Source of the DNA: Escherichia coli
GTDB lineage: Bacteria; Pseudomonadota; Gammaproteobacteria; Enterobacterales; Enterobacteriaceae
Reading direction: 5' to 3' (one strand)
DNA: 64,000 bases
Assembly (NCBI RefSeq): GCF_017348835.2
Contig: NZ_CP071375.1
The notes beneath the pieces were generated by a model, which saw only the letters and a program-made list of their open reading frames with translations, had not been told where the DNA came from and did not search any database. A program made the translations under genes and the position numbers. The number at the start of each line of letters is the position of its first letter. The stretch's first letter is position 1. Shown one piece after another: positions 1,497 to 46,333 of this stretch.

Positions 1497-2462
1497 TTAC
1501 AGAATGTGACCTAAGGTCTGGCGTAAATGTGCACCGGAACCGAGAAGACCCGGATTGTCATGGACGATGAGATACACCGGAATATCATGGACATATTCTT
1601 TAAAGCGCCCTTTATCTTCAAATGCGGCACGGAAACCAGAGGCTTTGAAGAACTCAAGGAAGCGCGGCACGATACCGCCCGCAATAAACACGCCCCCAAA
1701 TGTCCCGAGATTGAGCGCCAGATTGCCGCCAAAACGGCCCATAATGACGCAAAACAGCGACAACGCACGGCGGCAATCGGTGCAGCTGTCAGCCAGCGCG
1801 CGTTCGGTAATATCTTTTGGCTTGAGATTTTCTGGCAGGCGGTTGTCAGCTTTCACAATTGCGCGATACAAATTCACCAGCCCAGGGCCAGAAAGCACGC
1901 GTTCCGCCGAAACATGGCCAATTTCCGCACGCAATATTTCGAGGATAATGGCCTCTTCTTCACTATTCGGCGCAAAATCAACGTGACCGCCTTCGCCCGG
2001 CAAGCTTACCCAACGCTTATCGACATGGACCAGATGCGCAACCCCAAGCCCCGTTCCGGCACCGTAAACCGCAATAGGTTTACCTTCTACCGGTTCTGCG
2101 CCACCAAACTGAATCAGATGCTCTTTTTTCAGCATCGGAATCGCCATCGATACAGCGGTAAAATCGTTAATAATTTCCAGATGGCTAAAACCGAGATTCT
2201 TTTTCATTTCGGCAATTGAGAACGCCCAGGTATGGTTGGTCATTGCCACCCAGTCTCCGGTAATCGGGCAAGCGATGGCAATACAGCCGTCTTTCACCTC
2301 GACCTTATGTTCTTCAAGATAAACGCGAATGACCGCTTCGAGGCTGGGGTAATCAAGCCCTGAATAGGTCTTAGCCTGAGAGATTTCACCACTGGCAATA
2401 TCACACAGAGCAAGACGTGCGTTGGTGCCGCCCACATCACCGACTAATGCATACTTTGTCAT
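1497..2462 (-). CDS. glk: glucokinase
   Basis: 321-aa [22 protein letters not shown]... ROK/glucokinase ATP-binding motif; matches Glk as I recall it. Confidence 0.95.
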
Positions 2463-2665
2463 TCTTCAACTGCTCCGCTAAAGTCAAAATAATTCTTTCT
2501 CACACTGTAAATACCTGGGGGCATAACAACAACGCCGGAAAGGCAGGCTCCCTGTAAATATCGATCTGGGTCACACAATTACTTTATCGTTTCAGCACCA
2601 ATTGCAGCGATGCCTTTTTGCAAGCTGGGCAAACTAAGTATCTGACCCCGCATAAGGAATAGAAC

Positions 2666-3922
2666 ATGCTCCATCCGCGAGCCAGAACCATGTTGTTATT
2701 ATCGCTCCCCGCCGTGGCAATTGGGATTGCGTCCAGTCTTATTCTGATTGTGGTGATGAAAATCGCCTCGGCATTACAGAATTTGCTCTGGCAACGACTG
2801 CCGGGAACTCTGGGGATAGCCCAGGATTCACCTCTCTGGATCATCGGTGTATTAACGTTAACGGGTATTGCAGTGGGGTTGGTTATCCGTTTCAGCCAGG
2901 GTCATGCCGGACCAGACCCCGCCTGTGAACCGCTGATCGGCGCACCGGTTCCGCCCTCTGCGCTACCAGGACTTATCGTAGCATTAATTCTCGGTCTTGC
3001 TGGCGGCGTCAGCCTGGGGCCGGAACATCCGATCATGACCGTCAATATCGCCCTTGCGGTTGCCATTGGCGCTCGTCTGTTACCGCGCGTCAACCGAATG
3101 GAGTGGACTATTTTAGCCTCTGCCGGAACCATCGGCGCGCTGTTTGGTACACCTGTTGCGGCGGCGTTGATATTTTCGCAAACCTTAAATGGCAGTAGTG
3201 AAGTTCCGCTATGGGATCGTCTTTTTGCGCCGTTAATGGCGGCAGCAGCTGGTGCACTTACTACCGGATTATTTTTCCATCCCCATTTTTCACTGCCCAT
3301 TGCGCATTACGGACAGATGGAAATGACCGATATTCTCAGCGGTGCAATTGTCGCGGCGATTGCCATCGCAGCAGGGATGGTCGCCGTATGGTGCTTACCA
3401 CGGTTGCACGCGATGATGCATCAAATGAAAAATCCGGTGCTCGTGCTGGGTATTGGCGGATTTATTCTCGGTATTCTGGGGGTTATTGGTGGACCAGTTT
3501 CGCTGTTTAAAGGACTGGATGAGATGCAGCAGATGGTGGCAAATCAGGCTTTCAGCACCAGCGATTACTTTTTACTGGCGGTGATTAAACTTACCGCCCT
3601 GGTCGTTGCTGCCGCCAGTGGCTTTCGCGGTGGACGAATTTTCCCGGCAGTGTTCGTCGGCGTGGCATTAGGGTTGATGCTGCATGAGCACGTCCCCGCC
3701 GTTCCAGCGGCAATAACCGTTTCCTGCGCTATTCTCGGCATCGTGCTGGTGGTAACACGCGATGGCTGGTTAAGTCTTTTTATGGCGGCAGTCGTTGTAC
3801 CCAATACCACATTGCTACCGCTGCTCTGTATCGTCATGCTTCCGGCATGGCTGTTATTAGCAGGTAAGCCGATGATGATGGTCAATCGTCCGAAGCAACA
3901 GCCACCCCACGATAACGTTTAA
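2666..3922 (+). CDS. yfeO: ClC-family putative ion-transport membrane protein
   Basis: 418-aa polytopic hydrophobic ORF; conserved position between glk and ypeC. Confidence 0.8.
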
Positions 3923-4036
3923 CAAAAAATGCTCTCCTTTATGATTTAAGAGTTATGGCGATGATACGGGGCTTTACCTCCCCGTAATATTGCGTTAACA
4001 GGCCGCTGACGGCTTCGATCGTGAAGGAGAATAACA

Positions 4037-4363
4037 ATGTTCAGGTCACTGTTTCTGGCGGCCGCCCTGATGGCATTTACCCCGCTTGCAGCAAACGCAG
4101 GTGAAATCACCCTACTGCCATCAATCAAATTACAAATTGGCGATCGCGATCATTACGGTAATTACTGGGACGGTGGTCACTGGCGAGATCGTGATTACTG
4201 GCATCGCAATTATGAGTGGCGCAAAAACCGCTGGTGGCGTCATGATAATGGCTATCATCGTGGCTGGGATAAGCGTAAAGCGTATGAGCGTGGCTATCGT
4301 GAAGGCTGGCGCGATCGTGACGATCATCGCGGAAAAGGCCGCGGACATGGGCACCGCCATTAA
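4037..4363 (+). CDS. ypeC: secreted W/R/H/D-rich small protein (DUF2502-like)
   Basis: 108-aa ORF with signal peptide [21 protein letters not shown], then repetitive RDxDYWHRN-type motifs; RBS GGAG upstream. Confidence 0.75.
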
Positions 4364-4385
4364 ACACATTTGCCAATGGAGCACA

Positions 4386-4495
<110 letters not shown>

Positions 4496-4503
4496 TCATT
4501 CAA

Positions 4504-5751
<1,248 letters not shown>

Positions 5752-5753
5752 CT

Positions 5754-5775
5754 AAAACATAGCCTTTGCTATGTT
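5754..5775 (-). promoter_or_regulatory. MntR operator (inverted repeat) in mntH promoter
   Basis: AAACATAGC-cttt-GCTATGTTT perfect 9-bp inverted repeat just upstream of the mntH start. Confidence 0.7.
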
Positions 5776-5800
5776 TCATGCTATGCCAAACGAGAATGAT

Positions 5801-5823
5801 TATCAAATTCATTTAAATGGGTT
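5801..5823 (-). promoter_or_regulatory. Fur box-like site in mntH promoter
   Basis: gagaatgattatcaaattcattt resembles the GATAATGATAATCATTATC Fur consensus; location fits the known dual Fur/MntR control of mntH. Confidence 0.55.
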
Positions 5824-6077
5824 GTGGTGATTTCTCTGATAGACCAGGATTATGACTACGAAAAGATTGATGACTTGAATGTTATGGTTATGTTTAATGT
5901 TAGCACATTTACATAACTTTCAGCTTCCATACACAACATAGCAGAAATGTATGACAGCTCACTATTTTTGAAGCTTGTCACAGGACGTCATTATAGTGTG
6001 TGTCAGATCTCGTTTTCCTTAACCATGTTACATAGAATGTGCACGGAAATTTAACCTGCCTCATATTTGGAGCAAAT

Positions 6078-7280
6078 ATGGACCGCGTCCTTCATTTTGT
6101 ACTGGCACTTGCCGTTGTTGCGATTCTCGCACTGCTGGTAAGCAGCGACCGCAAAAAAATTCGTATCCGTTATGTTATTCAACTGCTTGTTATCGAAGTG
6201 TTACTGGCGTGGTTCTTCCTGAACTCCGACGTTGGTTTAGGCTTCGTGAAAGGCTTCTCCGAAATGTTCGAAAAACTGCTCGGATTTGCCAACGAAGGGA
6301 CTAACTTCGTCTTTGGTAGCATGAATGATCAAGGCCTGGCATTCTTCTTCCTGAAAGTGCTGTGCCCAATCGTCTTTATCTCTGCACTGATCGGTATTCT
6401 CCAGCACATTCGCGTGTTGCCGGTGATTATCCGCGCAATTGGTTTCCTGCTCTCCAAAGTCAACGGCATGGGCAAACTGGAATCCTTTAACGCCGTCAGC
6501 TCTCTGATTCTGGGTCAGTCTGAAAACTTTATTGCCTATAAAGATATCCTCGGCAAAATCTCCCGCAATCGTATGTACACCATGGCAGCAACGGCGATGT
6601 CCACCGTATCTATGTCCATCGTTGGTGCATACATGACCATGCTGGAGCCGAAATATGTCGTTGCGGCGCTGGTACTGAACATGTTCAGCACCTTTATCGT
6701 GCTGTCGCTGATCAACCCTTACCGTGTTGATGCCAGTGAAGAAAACATTCAGATGTCCAACCTGCACGAAGGTCAGAGCTTCTTCGAAATGCTGGGTGAA
6801 TACATTCTGGCAGGTTTCAAAGTTGCCATTATCGTTGCCGCGATGCTGATCGGCTTTATCGCCCTGATCGCCGCGTTGAACGCACTGTTTGCCACCGTGA
6901 CTGGCTGGTTTGGCTACAGCATCTCCTTCCAGGGCATCCTGGGCTACATCTTCTATCCGATTGCATGGGTGATGGGTGTTCCGTCCAGCGAAGCACTGCA
7001 AGTGGGCAGTATCATGGCGACCAAACTGGTTTCCAACGAGTTCGTTGCGATGATGGATCTGCAGAAAATTGCTTCCACGCTCTCTCCGCGTGCTGAAGGC
7101 ATCATCTCTGTGTTCCTGGTTTCCTTCGCTAACTTCTCTTCAATCGGGATTATCGCAGGTGCAGTTAAGGGTCTGAATGAAGAGCAAGGTAACGTGGTTT
7201 CTCGCTTCGGTCTGAAACTGGTTTACGGCTCTACCCTGGTGAGTGTGCTGTCTGCGTCAATCGCAGCACTGGTGCTGTAA
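6078..7280 (+). CDS. nupC: nucleoside:H+ symporter (CNT family)
   Basis: ORF 6039..7280 trimmed to ATG at 6078 ([20 protein letters not shown]...) with GGAG RBS at 6069-6072. Confidence 0.9.
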
Positions 7281-7290
7281 GACCATACAT

Positions 7291-7322
7291 AAAAAAGCCG
7301 GGGATAATTCCCCGGTTTTTTT
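7291..7322. terminator. bidirectional rho-independent terminator (nupC / pdeA)
   Basis: aaaaaaGCCGGGGataattCCCCGGttttttt: GC stem flanked by an A-run and a T-run. Confidence 0.8.
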
Positions 7323-7329
7323 ACGCCTG

Positions 7330-9519
7330 TTAATCAGCTAATGGCTGCGGGCGACCAATCAAATACCCTTGCAGATATTGCACCCCGAGCTTATGCAATA
7401 ACGCCTGCTGCTGTTGCGTCTCGACAAACTCCGCAACCACACTCAATGACTTCGCTTTCGCCAGATCGGTAATTGATCTCACAATCATCGCATCCAGCGT
7501 ATTCGTGACGATATCTTTCACAAAGACACCATCAATTTTGATGATATCAGCCTGCAAACGCTTTAACCGTTCGTAGTTGGCATAGCCGGTGCCAAAGTCA
7601 TCAATCGCAATCCGGAAGCCAAACTTATGCAGTTGCTCGATGTTGTACATGCTGCTTTCTGCGTTAGAAAACGCCTGCTCCTCGGTGATCTCAAGAATGA
7701 CCGCCTGCGGGGAGATGTGATAACGCTTAAACAGACGAATAATCCGCCCGGCAATATTCTTTTGTAGCAGCGTGAGCGGCATTAAATTAACTGAAAAGCG
7801 CGGGCCTTTTTTGTCGCAAGGGTGTGTTGCCAGCCACTTCAACAAGGATTCCAGCACTTGCAAATCAAAACGCGCGCTAAGGTTAAACTGAGCAATAAGG
7901 GGCAGAAACTTATCCCGGGTCATAATGCCGCCGTCATACTTCAGTCGCGCGAGGATCTCATCATAACCTTCACCCTCTTTGTTGCGAATTGGCTGGGCGT
8001 AGAGCAGCAAATCACCCTGATCTAACGCCGTGCGAATGGTATTCAGCAATAGCACTTGTTTAGTGGTCTGCCCGGAAACCATCTCCTCTCTGCTATCCAG
8101 CGCCAGCACATGATGATGTGCGCAGGATTGCTCCGCCAGCCAGCTTAACTGCCCCAACAAGGGTTGCAGGGTTTCCTGATTTCCATCAAAACGCCCCCAG
8201 GCAGCACCATAGCCCATATCCAGCCCGGTATTGTTCCAGTGAATTTGCCGACTATTCAGGATGTTAACCATATGCTGGAGTCGCCCTTCCGTTTCCGGCC
8301 CGCTCAGCACTAACAGCAGTTCACTACCCGGCAATTGATACAACTTTTCGTTTTCCTGCATCAACGGCAGCAGCGTACGGTAAATTGATCGGATACAGTG
8401 AACGCGCATCATTAACCCGTAATGACGACTCATAAACTCAAGATTATCAATGCGCAGGCAGCAAAAACTCTTGCCCGCCTCTTGCTCCGGCGCTTGTTCC
8501 AACGCACGAAAATTGGGTAGGAGCGTTAACGGATCGGTCAGCGCCTGCAAATGCCAGCGTCGATTAAGCCATTCACTGCGATGATAAATGCGCACCATAT
8601 AGAGCAGGCAAACGCTAAAGGAAATCAGCACCGCAAGAATAAATGCCAGCGAATATTCGGTTTCCACCCCTTGCAAAAAGTTCTGGTTGTAATTCAGCAG
8701 GCAAAGCGTTGAAACAGCCCAGGTGAGATTTAAAAACGGATAGCGAAGCTTACCGACCCCGAGGGTAAAGATGATGAAGAAAACGGGTACCAGGTAACCG
8801 GCAATAAAGTCGTTTTCATAAGGTGTGCACAACAGAAGTAGCAGCACGCTTAACGCTGCCAGCCAGCTTAAGGTAAATGCGCGTTTCTCTTTGCCCAACG
8901 ACGGAGCGATATCCCTGCGCCACAATATCTGCGCAAAGTGGGGACTTACAATCATGCGAGTGAGATAGTAGAAAAGCATGTTGTAAATCAGCACAGCGGT
9001 GAAAAGGCTTAGTAAATCAACAACCGTGAAAATGGCATCCGCATCGCCGAAAAAGGTGGATATCTTTAGCGGGAAATCAAAGAAGCTCCCCACAAAATAC
9101 ATGCTGCATTTGATGCCGATCGGCGTCACCAAACCAAGCCAGAACAGACGTTGCCAGACATATCGGCTGGTCAATCCATAACGCCAACGCGTCCCCAGCT
9201 GCCAGCGTAATATTGCGCAGGCACACAACACGACAAACGTCTGGCTGCCGAGCATGACCGCAGTCTGTAAAAAAGAGAGATGAAAGTTCCACAGATTGGT
9301 GCAAAACATCCCGCATAAAACGGGAACGACACCGCGCCAGCCAAAGATAAACAAGATTGACAGCATTACGCACAGTGGCATCCACGCCAGAAAGATATAA
9401 CTGGAATGGATAATGGCAAGTGGCGAAATAAAACGGGATAGCTGAATAAGTACCACGGTGAGCGTAAACGCTAGTGTGAATATCTTGATATTTTTTATCA
9501 GGTTATGCTCCACAAACAT
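7330..9519 (-). CDS. pdeA: membrane-anchored GGDEF(degenerate)-EAL c-di-GMP phosphodiesterase
   Basis: ORF 7330..9579 trimmed to MFVEHNLIKNIKIF... start (ATG complement 9517-9519); N-terminal TM segments, C-terminal EAL domain (EITEEQ...IAIDDFGTGY... motifs). Also known as yfeA. Confidence 0.85.
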   Translation of the reverse strand: MFVEHNLIKNIKIFTLAFTLTVVLIQLSRFISPLAIIHSSYIFLAWMPLCVMLSILFIFGWRGVVPVLCGMFCTNLWNFHLSFLQTAVMLGSQTFVVLCACAILRWQLGTRWRYGLTSRYVWQRLFWLGLVTPIGIKCSMYFVGSFFDFPLKISTFFGDADAIFTVVDLLSLFTAVLIYNMLFYYLTRMIVSPHFAQILWRRDIAPSLGKEKRAFTLSWLAALSVLLLLLCTPYENDFIAGYLVPVFFIIFTLGVGKLRYPFLNLTWAVSTLCLLNYNQNFLQGVETEYSLAFILAVLISFSVCLLYMVRIYHRSEWLNRRWHLQALTDPLTLLPNFRALEQAPEQEAGKSFCCLRIDNLEFMSRHYGLMMRVHCIRSIYRTLLPLMQENEKLYQLPGSELLLVLSGPETEGRLQHMVNILNSRQIHWNNTGLDMGYGAAWGRFDGNQETLQPLLGQLSWLAEQSCAHHHVLALDSREEMVSGQTTKQVLLLNTIRTALDQGDLLLYAQPIRNKEGEGYDEILARLKYDGGIMTRDKFLPLIAQFNLSARFDLQVLESLLKWLATHPCDKKGPRFSVNLMPLTLLQKNIAGRIIRLFKRYHISPQAVILEITEEQAFSNAESSMYNIEQLHKFGFRIAIDDFGTGYANYERLKRLQADIIKIDGVFVKDIVTNTLDAMIVRSITDLAKAKSLSVVAEFVETQQQQALLHKLGVQYLQGYLIGRPQPLAD

Positions 9520-9726
9520 GAGTACACTACTCTCACTGATCGGGGTTTTCAGGCACACAAATAATAAGTTTATTCGCATCGCGAAGCAAACAGGGGCCAG
9601 CCTGTTGCCGATTTTTCATCCAATGATGCTTTCACCAGGCGGCACTAACCCGGACGTAGACTGTATTACAAAAGCGGCAAAAAGCAGAGACAAAAAACCC
9701 CCGCTTTGCAGCGAGGGTTGGAAATT

Positions 9727-9802
<76 letters not shown>

Positions 9803-9841
9803 ACGATGCGTTTACGTACCAAATTTGCTGGGTGCAAAATT

Positions 9842-9917
<76 letters not shown>

Positions 9918-9948
9918 GTCACGTAAAGCTTGTCGAGTTGACGGGCGG

Positions 9949-9977
9949 CATCATATGAATTCCGCCCGAATGTGTCA
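9949..9977 (-). promoter_or_regulatory. sigma70 promoter of the tRNA-Ala tandem
   Basis: On the minus strand: TTGACA (complement of 9972-9977), 17-bp spacer, TATGAT (complement of 9949-9954), ~30 nt upstream of the mature tRNA 5' end. Confidence 0.6.
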
Positions 9978-10137
9978 ACGGCAAATTGCAACGTGTAGTT
10001 TCAATCGCTGAAAAATCAGGCAAATGAACAATTTTGGAAAACCGCTCGCATTCAGTAGTTATTCATGTCACGGTTTCCTGTAAAGTGGTGCTATAAAATG
10101 AACTACTAATAGACCCACATACATTCAGGGAATTGTT

Positions 10138-10497
10138 ATGTTCAAGGAGAGGATGACACCAGATGAACTTGCCAGACTGACCGGCTATAGCCGCCAGACC
10201 ATTAATAAATGGGTACGCAAGGAAGGCTGGACGACGTCACCAAAACCAGGCGTCCAGGGTGGCAAAGCCCGACTGGTTCACGTCAATGAACAGGTTCGTG
10301 AATATATTCGTAATGCTGAACGTCCAGAAGGTCAGGGAGAAGCGCCTGCCCTTTCTGGTGATGCGCCGCTTGAAGTATTGCTGGTGACACTGGCGAAAGA
10401 GATGACGCCAGTTGAACAAAAACAGTTTACATCCTTGCTTCTGCGGGAAGGGATTATCGGATTGTTACAACGCTTAGGGATTCGCGATAGCAAATAA
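10138..10497 (+). CDS. yfeC: small putative DNA-binding protein (DUF1323 family)
   Basis: 119-aa ORF; an alternative in-frame ATG at 10153 (MTPDELARLTGYSRQTINKWVRKEGW...) may be the true start; HTH-like N-terminus. Confidence 0.75.
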   Translation: MFKERMTPDELARLTGYSRQTINKWVRKEGWTTSPKPGVQGGKARLVHVNEQVREYIRNAERPEGQGEAPALSGDAPLEVLLVTLAKEMTPVEQKQFTSLLLREGIIGLLQRLGIRDSK

Positions 10498-10498
10498 T

Positions 10499-10891
10499 AT
10501 GAAAAGATTACGCAACAAAATGACCACCGAAGAACTGGCTGAATGCCTCGGTGTGGCTAAACAAACTGTTAACCGTTGGATCAGAGAAAAAGGCTGGAAA
10601 ACGGAAAAATTTCCCGGCGTGAAAGGCGGTCGTGCCAGACTTATTCTGGTCGATACGCAAGTTTGCGAGTTTATTCAGAACACGCCAGCCTTCCATAACA
10701 CACCGATGCTTCTGGAAGCCGAAGAACCCCTTGCCGAATACGCACCGGGGATTCGCACTCCTGCTTATCGACAAATCATAAGCGCAATAGACAACATGAC
10801 TCACAGTGAGCAGGAAAAAGTTGCGCAATTTTTGTCACGCGAAGGAATTCGTAATTTCCTGGCTCGTCTCGACATAAATGAATCAGCATAA
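10499..10891 (+). CDS. yfeD: small putative DNA-binding protein, paralog of the upstream gene
   Basis: 130-aa ORF with N-terminus (TTEELAECLGVAKQTVNRWIREKGWKTEKFPGVKGGRARL) clearly paralogous to the preceding ORF. Confidence 0.8.
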   Translation: MKRLRNKMTTEELAECLGVAKQTVNRWIREKGWKTEKFPGVKGGRARLILVDTQVCEFIQNTPAFHNTPMLLEAEEPLAEYAPGIRTPAYRQIISAIDNMTHSEQEKVAQFLSREGIRNFLARLDINESA

Positions 10892-45127: not shown

Positions 45128-46333
45128 TTGAGCAAGACACCACTGACAGCAAAGGCCATAGAGGCCGCACAACCGCAGGACAAGCCCTATAAACTCACCG
45201 ATTCACAGACACCTGGCCTGTTTTTGCTGGTCCATCCCAACGGCAGCAAATACTGGCGATTCCGGTATTGGATAGACAAGAAGGAGCGGTTACAGGCTAT
45301 TGGGGTGTATCCGCTGATTAGCCTCAAGGAAGCCCGCAAACGCGCCACAGAGAGCCGTTTACTGATAGCCCAGGGAATTGACCCAATGGATTTGGCACGC
45401 AAGGAGAAAGCCATTGATGCTCTTAATGCTATCGCCAGTTTTAAAGCTGTAGCAGAAGACTGGATGGCTACCAAGGTGAGCGGATGGAGTGAGAGCTATA
45501 CAAAGCAGGTCAGATCGGCACTAGAGAAAGATGTTTACCCCGTGCTAGGTAAGCGGTCGATAGTGGATATAACGGCCCGTGACGTGCTGGCGTTACTACA
45601 GAAAAAGGAGCGCACCGCACCGGAACAAGCCAGGAAATTACGCCAGCGTATCGGGGAGATCTTCAAATTTGCCGTTATCACTGAACTGGTTAACCGGAAT
45701 CCGGTTGCAGATCTGGATACGGCACTGAAAGCCAGACGCCCAGGCCATAACGCGTGGATACCGATTAATGAAATTCCGGCCTTCTACAAAGCCCTTGAGA
45801 GAGCTGGGAGCGTTCAGATTCAGACGGCAATACTTTTGCTCATCCTCACAGCTTTGAGGACGGCAGAATTGCGCCTGATGCGCTGGGAATGGGTAGATCT
45901 GCAATCGGCAACAATCACATTGCCCGCTGAAGTCATGAAGGCCCGCCGACCGCATGTTGTCCCGCTATCCCGGCAGGCGGTCGAGCTATTACAGGACCAG
46001 TTTACCCGCAGCGGATACAGTGCTTTCGTCTTTCCTGGCCGATTCATGGACAAGCCACTTTCAGCCAGTGCCATCCTTAAAGCCCTGGAGCGTATCGGAT
46101 ACAAGTCGATAGCCACAGGCCACGGCTGGCGGACCACCTTTTCAACGGCGCTTAATGAGTCCGGCAGGTACTCACCAGACTGGATCGAAATCCAACTGGC
46201 CCACGTTCCGAAAGGCGTGCGCGGTGTTTATAACCAGGCGGCCTACCTGAAGCAACGACGGGCCATGATGCAGGATTATAGCGACTGTATTGATTCAATA
46301 CTGGCTGGTGACGGTAATCCACTTGAACCGTGA
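45128..46333 (+). CDS. intZ: P4-type tyrosine integrase
   Basis: 401-aa ORF (TTG start in the ORF track); N-terminal arm-binding-type domain (DKPYKLTDSQTPGLFLLVHPNGSKYWRFRYW), catalytic region with HGWR and terminal ...GVYNQAAYLKQRRAMMQ tyrosine motif. The symbol is assigned by position only. Confidence 0.85.
   Translation: MSKTPLTAKAIEAAQPQDKPYKLTDSQTPGLFLLVHPNGSKYWRFRYWIDKKERLQAIGVYPLISLKEARKRATESRLLIAQGIDPMDLARKEKAIDALNAIASFKAVAEDWMATKVSGWSESYTKQVRSALEKDVYPVLGKRSIVDITARDVLALLQKKERTAPEQARKLRQRIGEIFKFAVITELVNRNPVADLDTALKARRPGHNAWIPINEIPAFYKALERAGSVQIQTAILLLILTALRTAELRLMRWEWVDLQSATITLPAEVMKARRPHVVPLSRQAVELLQDQFTRSGYSAFVFPGRFMDKPLSASAILKALERIGYKSIATGHGWRTTFSTALNESGRYSPDWIEIQLAHVPKGVRGVYNQAAYLKQRRAMMQDYSDCIDSILAGDGNPLEP

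Follow-up and report, generated by a model that had tools for sequence, protein, structure and literature searches.

The nupC-pdeA junction of a pig-associated Escherichia coli lineage as a probable un-inserted allele of an IS186 target site

The junction analysed in this study lies between two genes of the window, that is, the whole 64-kb stretch of E. coli DNA under analysis. The upstream ORF was identified as nupC by a profile match to NCBIfam TIGR00804 of 486.7 bits, above the cut-off of 442. The opposing gene, whose product gave GGDEF/EAL-family profile matches, encodes a membrane sensor with GGDEF-EAL c-di-GMP phosphodiesterase domains; its name, pdeA, is that of the RefSeq annotation in the genomes matching the window, including PE164. 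The coordinates of both genes are those of the RefSeq CDSs carried over from PE164, whose genome is 100% identical here. The features of the locus are as follows.

4504-5742: mntH, upstream of nupC, placed as in K-12.
6078-7280, plus strand: nupC, encoding a nucleoside:H+ symporter; 400 codons and the stop codon TAA at 7278-7280.
7281-7329: nupC-pdeA spacer, 49 bp between the converging stop codons, as given by the sequence and the ORF ends.
7291-7322, both strands: terminator-like element consisting of A6 (7291-7296), G, the hairpin CCGGGG-ATAATT-CCCCGG (7298-7315), and T7 (7316-7322).
7300-7313: IS186 target motif, GGGGATAATTCCCC, found by motif search as an exact match to GGGG(N6/N7)CCCC in its N6 form.
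7301-7312: IS186 duplication, GGGATAATTCCC, 12 bases present at either side of the IS in K-12 and in other carriers.
7330-9519, minus strand: pdeA (yfeA), 729 codons with the stop codon at 7330-7332, from the ORF list and the RefSeq CDS of PE164.

The first-pass annotation had described nupC and pdeA as convergent genes 49 bp apart, and the sequence and the ORF list gave exactly this distance. Upstream of mntH, in the region of 5723-5779, the RefSeq annotation of K-12-type genomes has a 90-nt small ORF, ypeD, overlapping the mntH start; at this position, PE164 and several other isolates have only a 57-nt 'hypothetical protein' in RefSeq. In the extracted loci, the 57-nt form spans 1943-1999 and the 90-nt form 1943-2032, a difference of either annotation or sequence.

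The spacer reads GACCATACAT-AAAAAA-G-CCGGGG-ATAATT-CCCCGG-TTTTTTT-ACGCCTG and contains a single strong hairpin, CCGGGGATAATTCCCCGG, placed between an A-run and a T-run. A consensus scan detected a terminator-like site on each strand. The stem is GC-rich and 7 bp long, CCGGGG(A)/(U)CCCCGG, with a loop of 4 nt, and it starts 17 nt past the nupC stop and 14 nt past the pdeA stop. A U-run directly follows the stem on both strands, U7 on the plus strand and CUUUUUU on the minus strand, where the run is shorter (6 U after a C, against 7 U). When the 49-nt RNA was folded, the plus strand gave -22.6 kcal/mol (z -6.0) and the minus strand -24.1 kcal/mol (z -5.6), and in neither case did any of 200 dinucleotide shuffles fold as well; the fold of the spacer is well beyond chance.

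Bidirectional Rho-independent terminators common to convergent genes are an established general class. The nupC-pdeA hairpin resembles this class in its GC-rich stem, its A-run and T-run, and its scoring on both strands, whereas its function is predicted here from sequence. These canonical features suggest that the hairpin is a Rho-independent terminator shared by the two genes. On the plus strand, the RNA hairpin followed by U7 would end the nupC transcripts; on the minus strand, the same hairpin followed by U6, derived from the A-run, would end the pdeA transcripts. The earlier proposal of one bidirectional terminator common to nupC and pdeA is accordingly in keeping with what the scan and the folds predicted for both strands.

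In one or both directions, the hairpin might instead serve as a 3' stem-loop that stabilises the RNA, or be a neutral palindrome, and the genes would then be terminated elsewhere or by Rho. An intact hairpin is not essential, since IS186 splits it in K-12 and in hundreds of natural isolates, and the U-run of the minus strand is interrupted. However, the canonical set is complete, comprising stem, loop, U7/U6 directly 3', and the short distances past both stop codons; the hairpin also folds far above the shuffles and is kept in ~4,460 genomes. We therefore regard this alternative as unlikely, and a shared terminator as the better description of the spacer.

In an Rfam scan of 5700-10500 at a permissive E-value, only two tRNA-Ala genes passed, and no match in the spacer was above threshold. 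A Leu_leader match at 7218-7322 on the plus strand reached 28.1 bits, below the gathering score of 50, and most likely reflects a chance resemblance of hairpin and U-run. Likewise, a promoter-like match in the spacer (minus strand, 7333-7304, 9/12) was attributed to chance, the scan giving 3 sites against 1.2 +/- 1.3 expected.

Subsequently, the junction was compared with that of K-12. In MG1655 (NC_000913.3), 'insertion sequence:IS186C' at 2514273-2515617 is annotated together with insL3 between nupC and pdeA, as the first-pass annotation had stated for K-12. The locus of strain g83, identical to K-12, was used as the K-12-type comparator, and the K-12 flanks were also read directly. By BLAST, the left alignment of the window with this locus ended at 7312 and the right one began at 7301. 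The element between the K-12 duplications was 1,337 bp long with ATAAGCGCTAACTTAAGGGTTG inverted repeats at its ends. When this element and one 12-bp copy of GGGATAATTCCC were removed from the K-12-type locus, the window sequence 7253-7330 was rebuilt base for base, which bears out the earlier suggestion of an un-inserted state. Lee et al. (PMC5009759) counted CCC/GGG as IS ends and the 6-bp core as the duplication; read in this way, the duplication at the present site is ATAATT at 7304-7309, and both readings lead to the same empty site.

The alignment with K-12 and other E. coli genomes, which had been proposed as a check, thus placed the IS in K-12 and the compact junction here. The IS186C locus and the window share the same flank layout, and K-12 alone has the IS. 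No IS186 end was found in the 64-kb window with up to 3 mismatches allowed, which distinguishes it from the K-12-type allele and, together with the 49-bp gap, agrees with the reported lack of an insertion sequence at the junction. A compact junction in K-12 itself would have spoken against this comparison; MG1655, C600, J53, DH5alpha, DH1, NCM3722, and the other sampled derivatives all had the IS. In the K-12 half-sites, the hairpin and U-run are lost, and the two halves fold at -10.4 and -8.9 kcal/mol with z about 0. This suggests that K-12 may lack the native terminator of nupC and pdeA. Because K-12 carries the IS, published K-12 datasets would not contain the intact nupC-pdeA site.

The IS186 target motif, 5'-GGGG(N6/N7)CCCC-3', was reportedly described by SaiSree et al. 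in 2001. In the spacer, the G4 and C4 runs of the stem and the 6-nt loop region together make up GGGG-N6-CCCC, the target of the IS4-family element IS186. In K-12 and other carriers, IS186 has entered the middle of the hairpin, in one orientation or the other, with duplication of GGGATAATTCCC, which would leave two non-functional terminator halves. The GGGG-N6-CCCC sequence of the spacer was the sole match in the window, where chance would give about 1.1. The motif is known to be highly specific (PMC5009759, PMC6925257), and the K-12 genome has 19 N6 copies and 54 copies in total (Lee et al. 2016, PMC5009759). As the motif is palindromic, IS186 inserts in either orientation at one site (PMC5009759); at the lon-promoter hot spot, both orientations were obtained at one position in the laboratory (PMC3045373). 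Published hot spots of IS186 are the lon promoter, menC, and fimA. Like the published motif sites, the nupC-pdeA site is an N6 instance with IS186 in both orientations in natural genomes; unlike the published hot spots, its motif is empty in the window. Our literature search found no paper linking IS186 with nupC, yfeA, or hokC/hokE.

The other two IS186 copies of MG1655 are located directly 3' of hokC and hokE, each about 20 bp or less from the end of the gene.

1388-2732 of one extracted MG1655 locus: IS186A.
2008-3352 of a second extracted MG1655 locus: IS186B.

The rebuilt empty sites of hokC and hokE were GGCGGGG-ATCACT-CCCCGCC and GCGGGG-AGTAAT-CCCCGC, respectively, with 12-bp GGG-N6-CCC duplications, and they folded at -23.9 kcal/mol (z -3.9) and -26.0 kcal/mol (z -5.4). 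Both resemble the nupC-pdeA site in having a strong GGGG-N6-CCCC hairpin just past a stop codon. In contrast to that site, they are 3' hairpins of single toxin mRNAs without clear U-runs, and not shared terminators. All three K-12 copies of IS186 hence lie in GC-rich 3' hairpins past stop codons, because the motif itself is a short stem-loop.

The states of the junction were then counted in 5,426 complete E. coli genomes. The junction was uninterrupted in ~4,460 of them (about 82%; 4,462 with a K-12-derived probe), and carried IS186 in the K-12 orientation in 472; in another 465, the element lay at the same position the other way round. The last number was obtained with a synthetic junction probe matched at 100% identity, and the opposite orientation was confirmed in annotated loci, where the transposase gene lay between nupC and pdeA on the other strand. 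IS186 thus occupies the nupC-pdeA junction in 937 genomes, about 17% of complete E. coli. The element was present anywhere in 2,214 of the 5,426 genomes and absent from 59%, and the nupC-pdeA site was filled in about 42% of the carriers. When both junctions were aligned in three forward and eight reverse genomes, the insertion point and the GGGATAATTCCC duplication were the same in 11 of 11; within this set, strain H8 showed single-base homopolymer differences and strain 720632 one substitution.

These genome counts are not counts of events, as the forward class consists mainly of resequenced K-12 derivatives: about 55 of the best 60 listed of the 472 forward carriers were laboratory K-12 derivatives. 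Natural forward carriers among the matches listed were 510016, 14EC001, MDR_56, and PCN061. The insertion of IS186 at this junction is not specific to K-12, given the 465 reverse genomes and the few natural forward isolates.

The remaining genomes, roughly 27, included a duplicated hairpin (13 genomes), a nupC deletion (ST2747), and a nested IS2 (Stbl4), among others. In the 13 genomes of the first type, two copies of the terminator hairpin (AAAAGCCGGGGATAATTCCC...) surrounded a REP-like palindrome, GCCTGATAAGCGTAGCGCATCAGGC; an example is E. coli 2020CK-00188, with a spacer of 142 bp (801-942 of the extracted locus). In ST2747 (NZ_CP007394.1, region of 3296497-3296696), a deletion has removed nupC together with the terminator and the final ~70 nt of pdeA; the gene directly after mntH is a pdeA of 2,214 nt in the annotation, whose 3' end differs. 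The IS2 of Stbl4 lies inside the junction copy of IS186. In the reverse carrier 720632, ISKpn26 truncates pdeA (3977-5220 of the extracted locus), and the right copy of the duplication has a C-to-T change (GGGATAATTCTC).

A search of species-representative genomes with the exact 21-mer AGCCGGGGATAATTCCCCGGT gave a contaminant contig as its sole match and was uninformative on conservation outside E. coli. This 289-bp contig, NZ_VLXZ01000152.1 in the assembly of Alkalicoccobacillus porphyridii P16, has 1.4x coverage and an empty nupC-pdeA junction, and is identical to the window at 285 of 289 positions; it is almost certainly E. coli contamination.

Against the K-12-type locus, the left flank had 54 mismatches in 3,532 bp (98.5% identity) and the right flank 21 in 1,663 bp (98.7% identity), the overall difference between the window flanks and K-12 being about 1.3-1.7%. 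The 21 differences between nupC and its MG1655 counterpart are all synonymous, since PE164 and the K-12-type strain g83 share the same NupC protein accession. Over positions 1-25000, the window had 100% identity with two isolates from pigs, PE164 (China, diarrhoea/blood) and F2_81, whereas the next complete genomes reached 99.1%; the full identity probably extends over the whole window. An ORF at 45128-46333 on the plus strand (401 aa) coincides with the position of intZ in PE164, indicating collinearity at least that far. With ~1.5% divergence from K-12 and the 100% match to PE164 and F2_81, the earlier statement that the DNA is not from a standard K-12 laboratory strain is correct. The empty site excludes K-12 and says little else about the strain, because it is the majority state (~82% of complete genomes). 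A 1,049-bp junction probe matched only two genomes at 99% identity or more; the PE164/F2_81 lineage is therefore sparsely sampled.

The ORF at 45128-46333, which coincides with the tyrosine integrase gene intZ beside eutB in PE164, is followed by a gene for a YafO-family toxin and hypothetical genes up to ~50500, forming an integrated element at the eut locus. Its position is presumably that of CPZ-55 in K-12.

The empty site was present in at least 40 genomes whose flanks match those of K-12 at 100% over 1,600 bp, among them NCTC86, H1, H5, H6, and H7; the sibling strain H8 carries the IS in reverse. The K-12 pdeA protein allele was found with both orientations of IS186. The presence of empty, forward, and reverse states on one haplotype argues for recent and repeated gain of IS186 at a natural hot spot. 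We infer that the two orientations represent independent insertion events, most likely at least two in number, and that the empty state is ancestral. Accordingly, 7281-7329 is very probably an intact un-inserted allele, a predicted bidirectional terminator whose IS186 target has not been hit in the pig-associated lineage of PE164 and F2_81.

In-place inversion and precise excision are weaker alternatives to repeated gain. In the former, one insertion would have been flipped by recombination between its 22-bp terminal inverted repeats (~26 bp with the near-palindromic duplication). In 720632, the reverse copy has the same position and the same duplication as the K-12 copy and matches its reverse complement exactly, with 0 mismatches over 1,337 bp, and both orientations share one pdeA protein allele, as expected from such a flip; however, position and duplication would also be identical if a palindromic target received a symmetric staggered cut. 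Furthermore, homologous recombination is usually efficient only above a minimum repeat length, which inverted repeats of 22-26 bp barely reach or fall short of; this counts against inversion. As IS186 is also known to insert either way at one site of its palindromic motif (PMC5009759) and has done so at the same position of the lon promoter in the laboratory (PMC3045373), an inversion in place appears improbable.

Another possibility is that the occupied state is not neutral and has been repeatedly selected in some lineages through altered 3'-end formation of nupC and pdeA or read-through. This idea arises because the insertion of IS186 strips the shared terminator from the genes of a nucleoside transporter and a c-di-GMP phosphodiesterase. 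Its context is that the genome has very few GGGG-N6-CCCC sites, and that the present one is kept in ~82% of genomes and filled in ~42% of the IS186 carriers. If true, it would require a change of expression on loss of the terminator, and we give it only slight credence.

That the compact junction is secondary, an ancestral IS186 having been lost by precise excision with restoration of the hairpin, is very improbable: losses as well as gains could give the coexistence of empty and occupied sites on identical flanks, and the 12-bp direct repeats around the IS could support a repeat-mediated precise deletion, but the empty state is found in about 82% of genomes, including all more divergent haplotypes, IS186 is missing altogether from 59% of genomes and shows no end in the window, the site has no scar or sequence change and, as an exact reconstruction, has the look of a site never hit, and a mutation-accumulation study recorded 758 IS insertions against one excision (PMC5009759).

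Taken together, repeated gain of IS186 at an ancestrally empty site is the reading that we prefer. The finding is an ordinary one: IS186C in K-12 is already documented, as are the target motif and its orientation-independence; current understanding is unchanged, and the practical value is small. What is added here is the exact map of the empty site and the population frequencies of its states. As a simple presence/absence marker, the junction sets K-12 derivatives and some natural lineages apart from most E. coli. Transcript maps based on K-12 would miss the native terminator of nupC and pdeA, which is split by the IS in the reference strain. Finally, with ~17% of genomes occupied and three states on one haplotype, the site illustrates in natural isolates the motif specificity and the orientation-independence of IS186.
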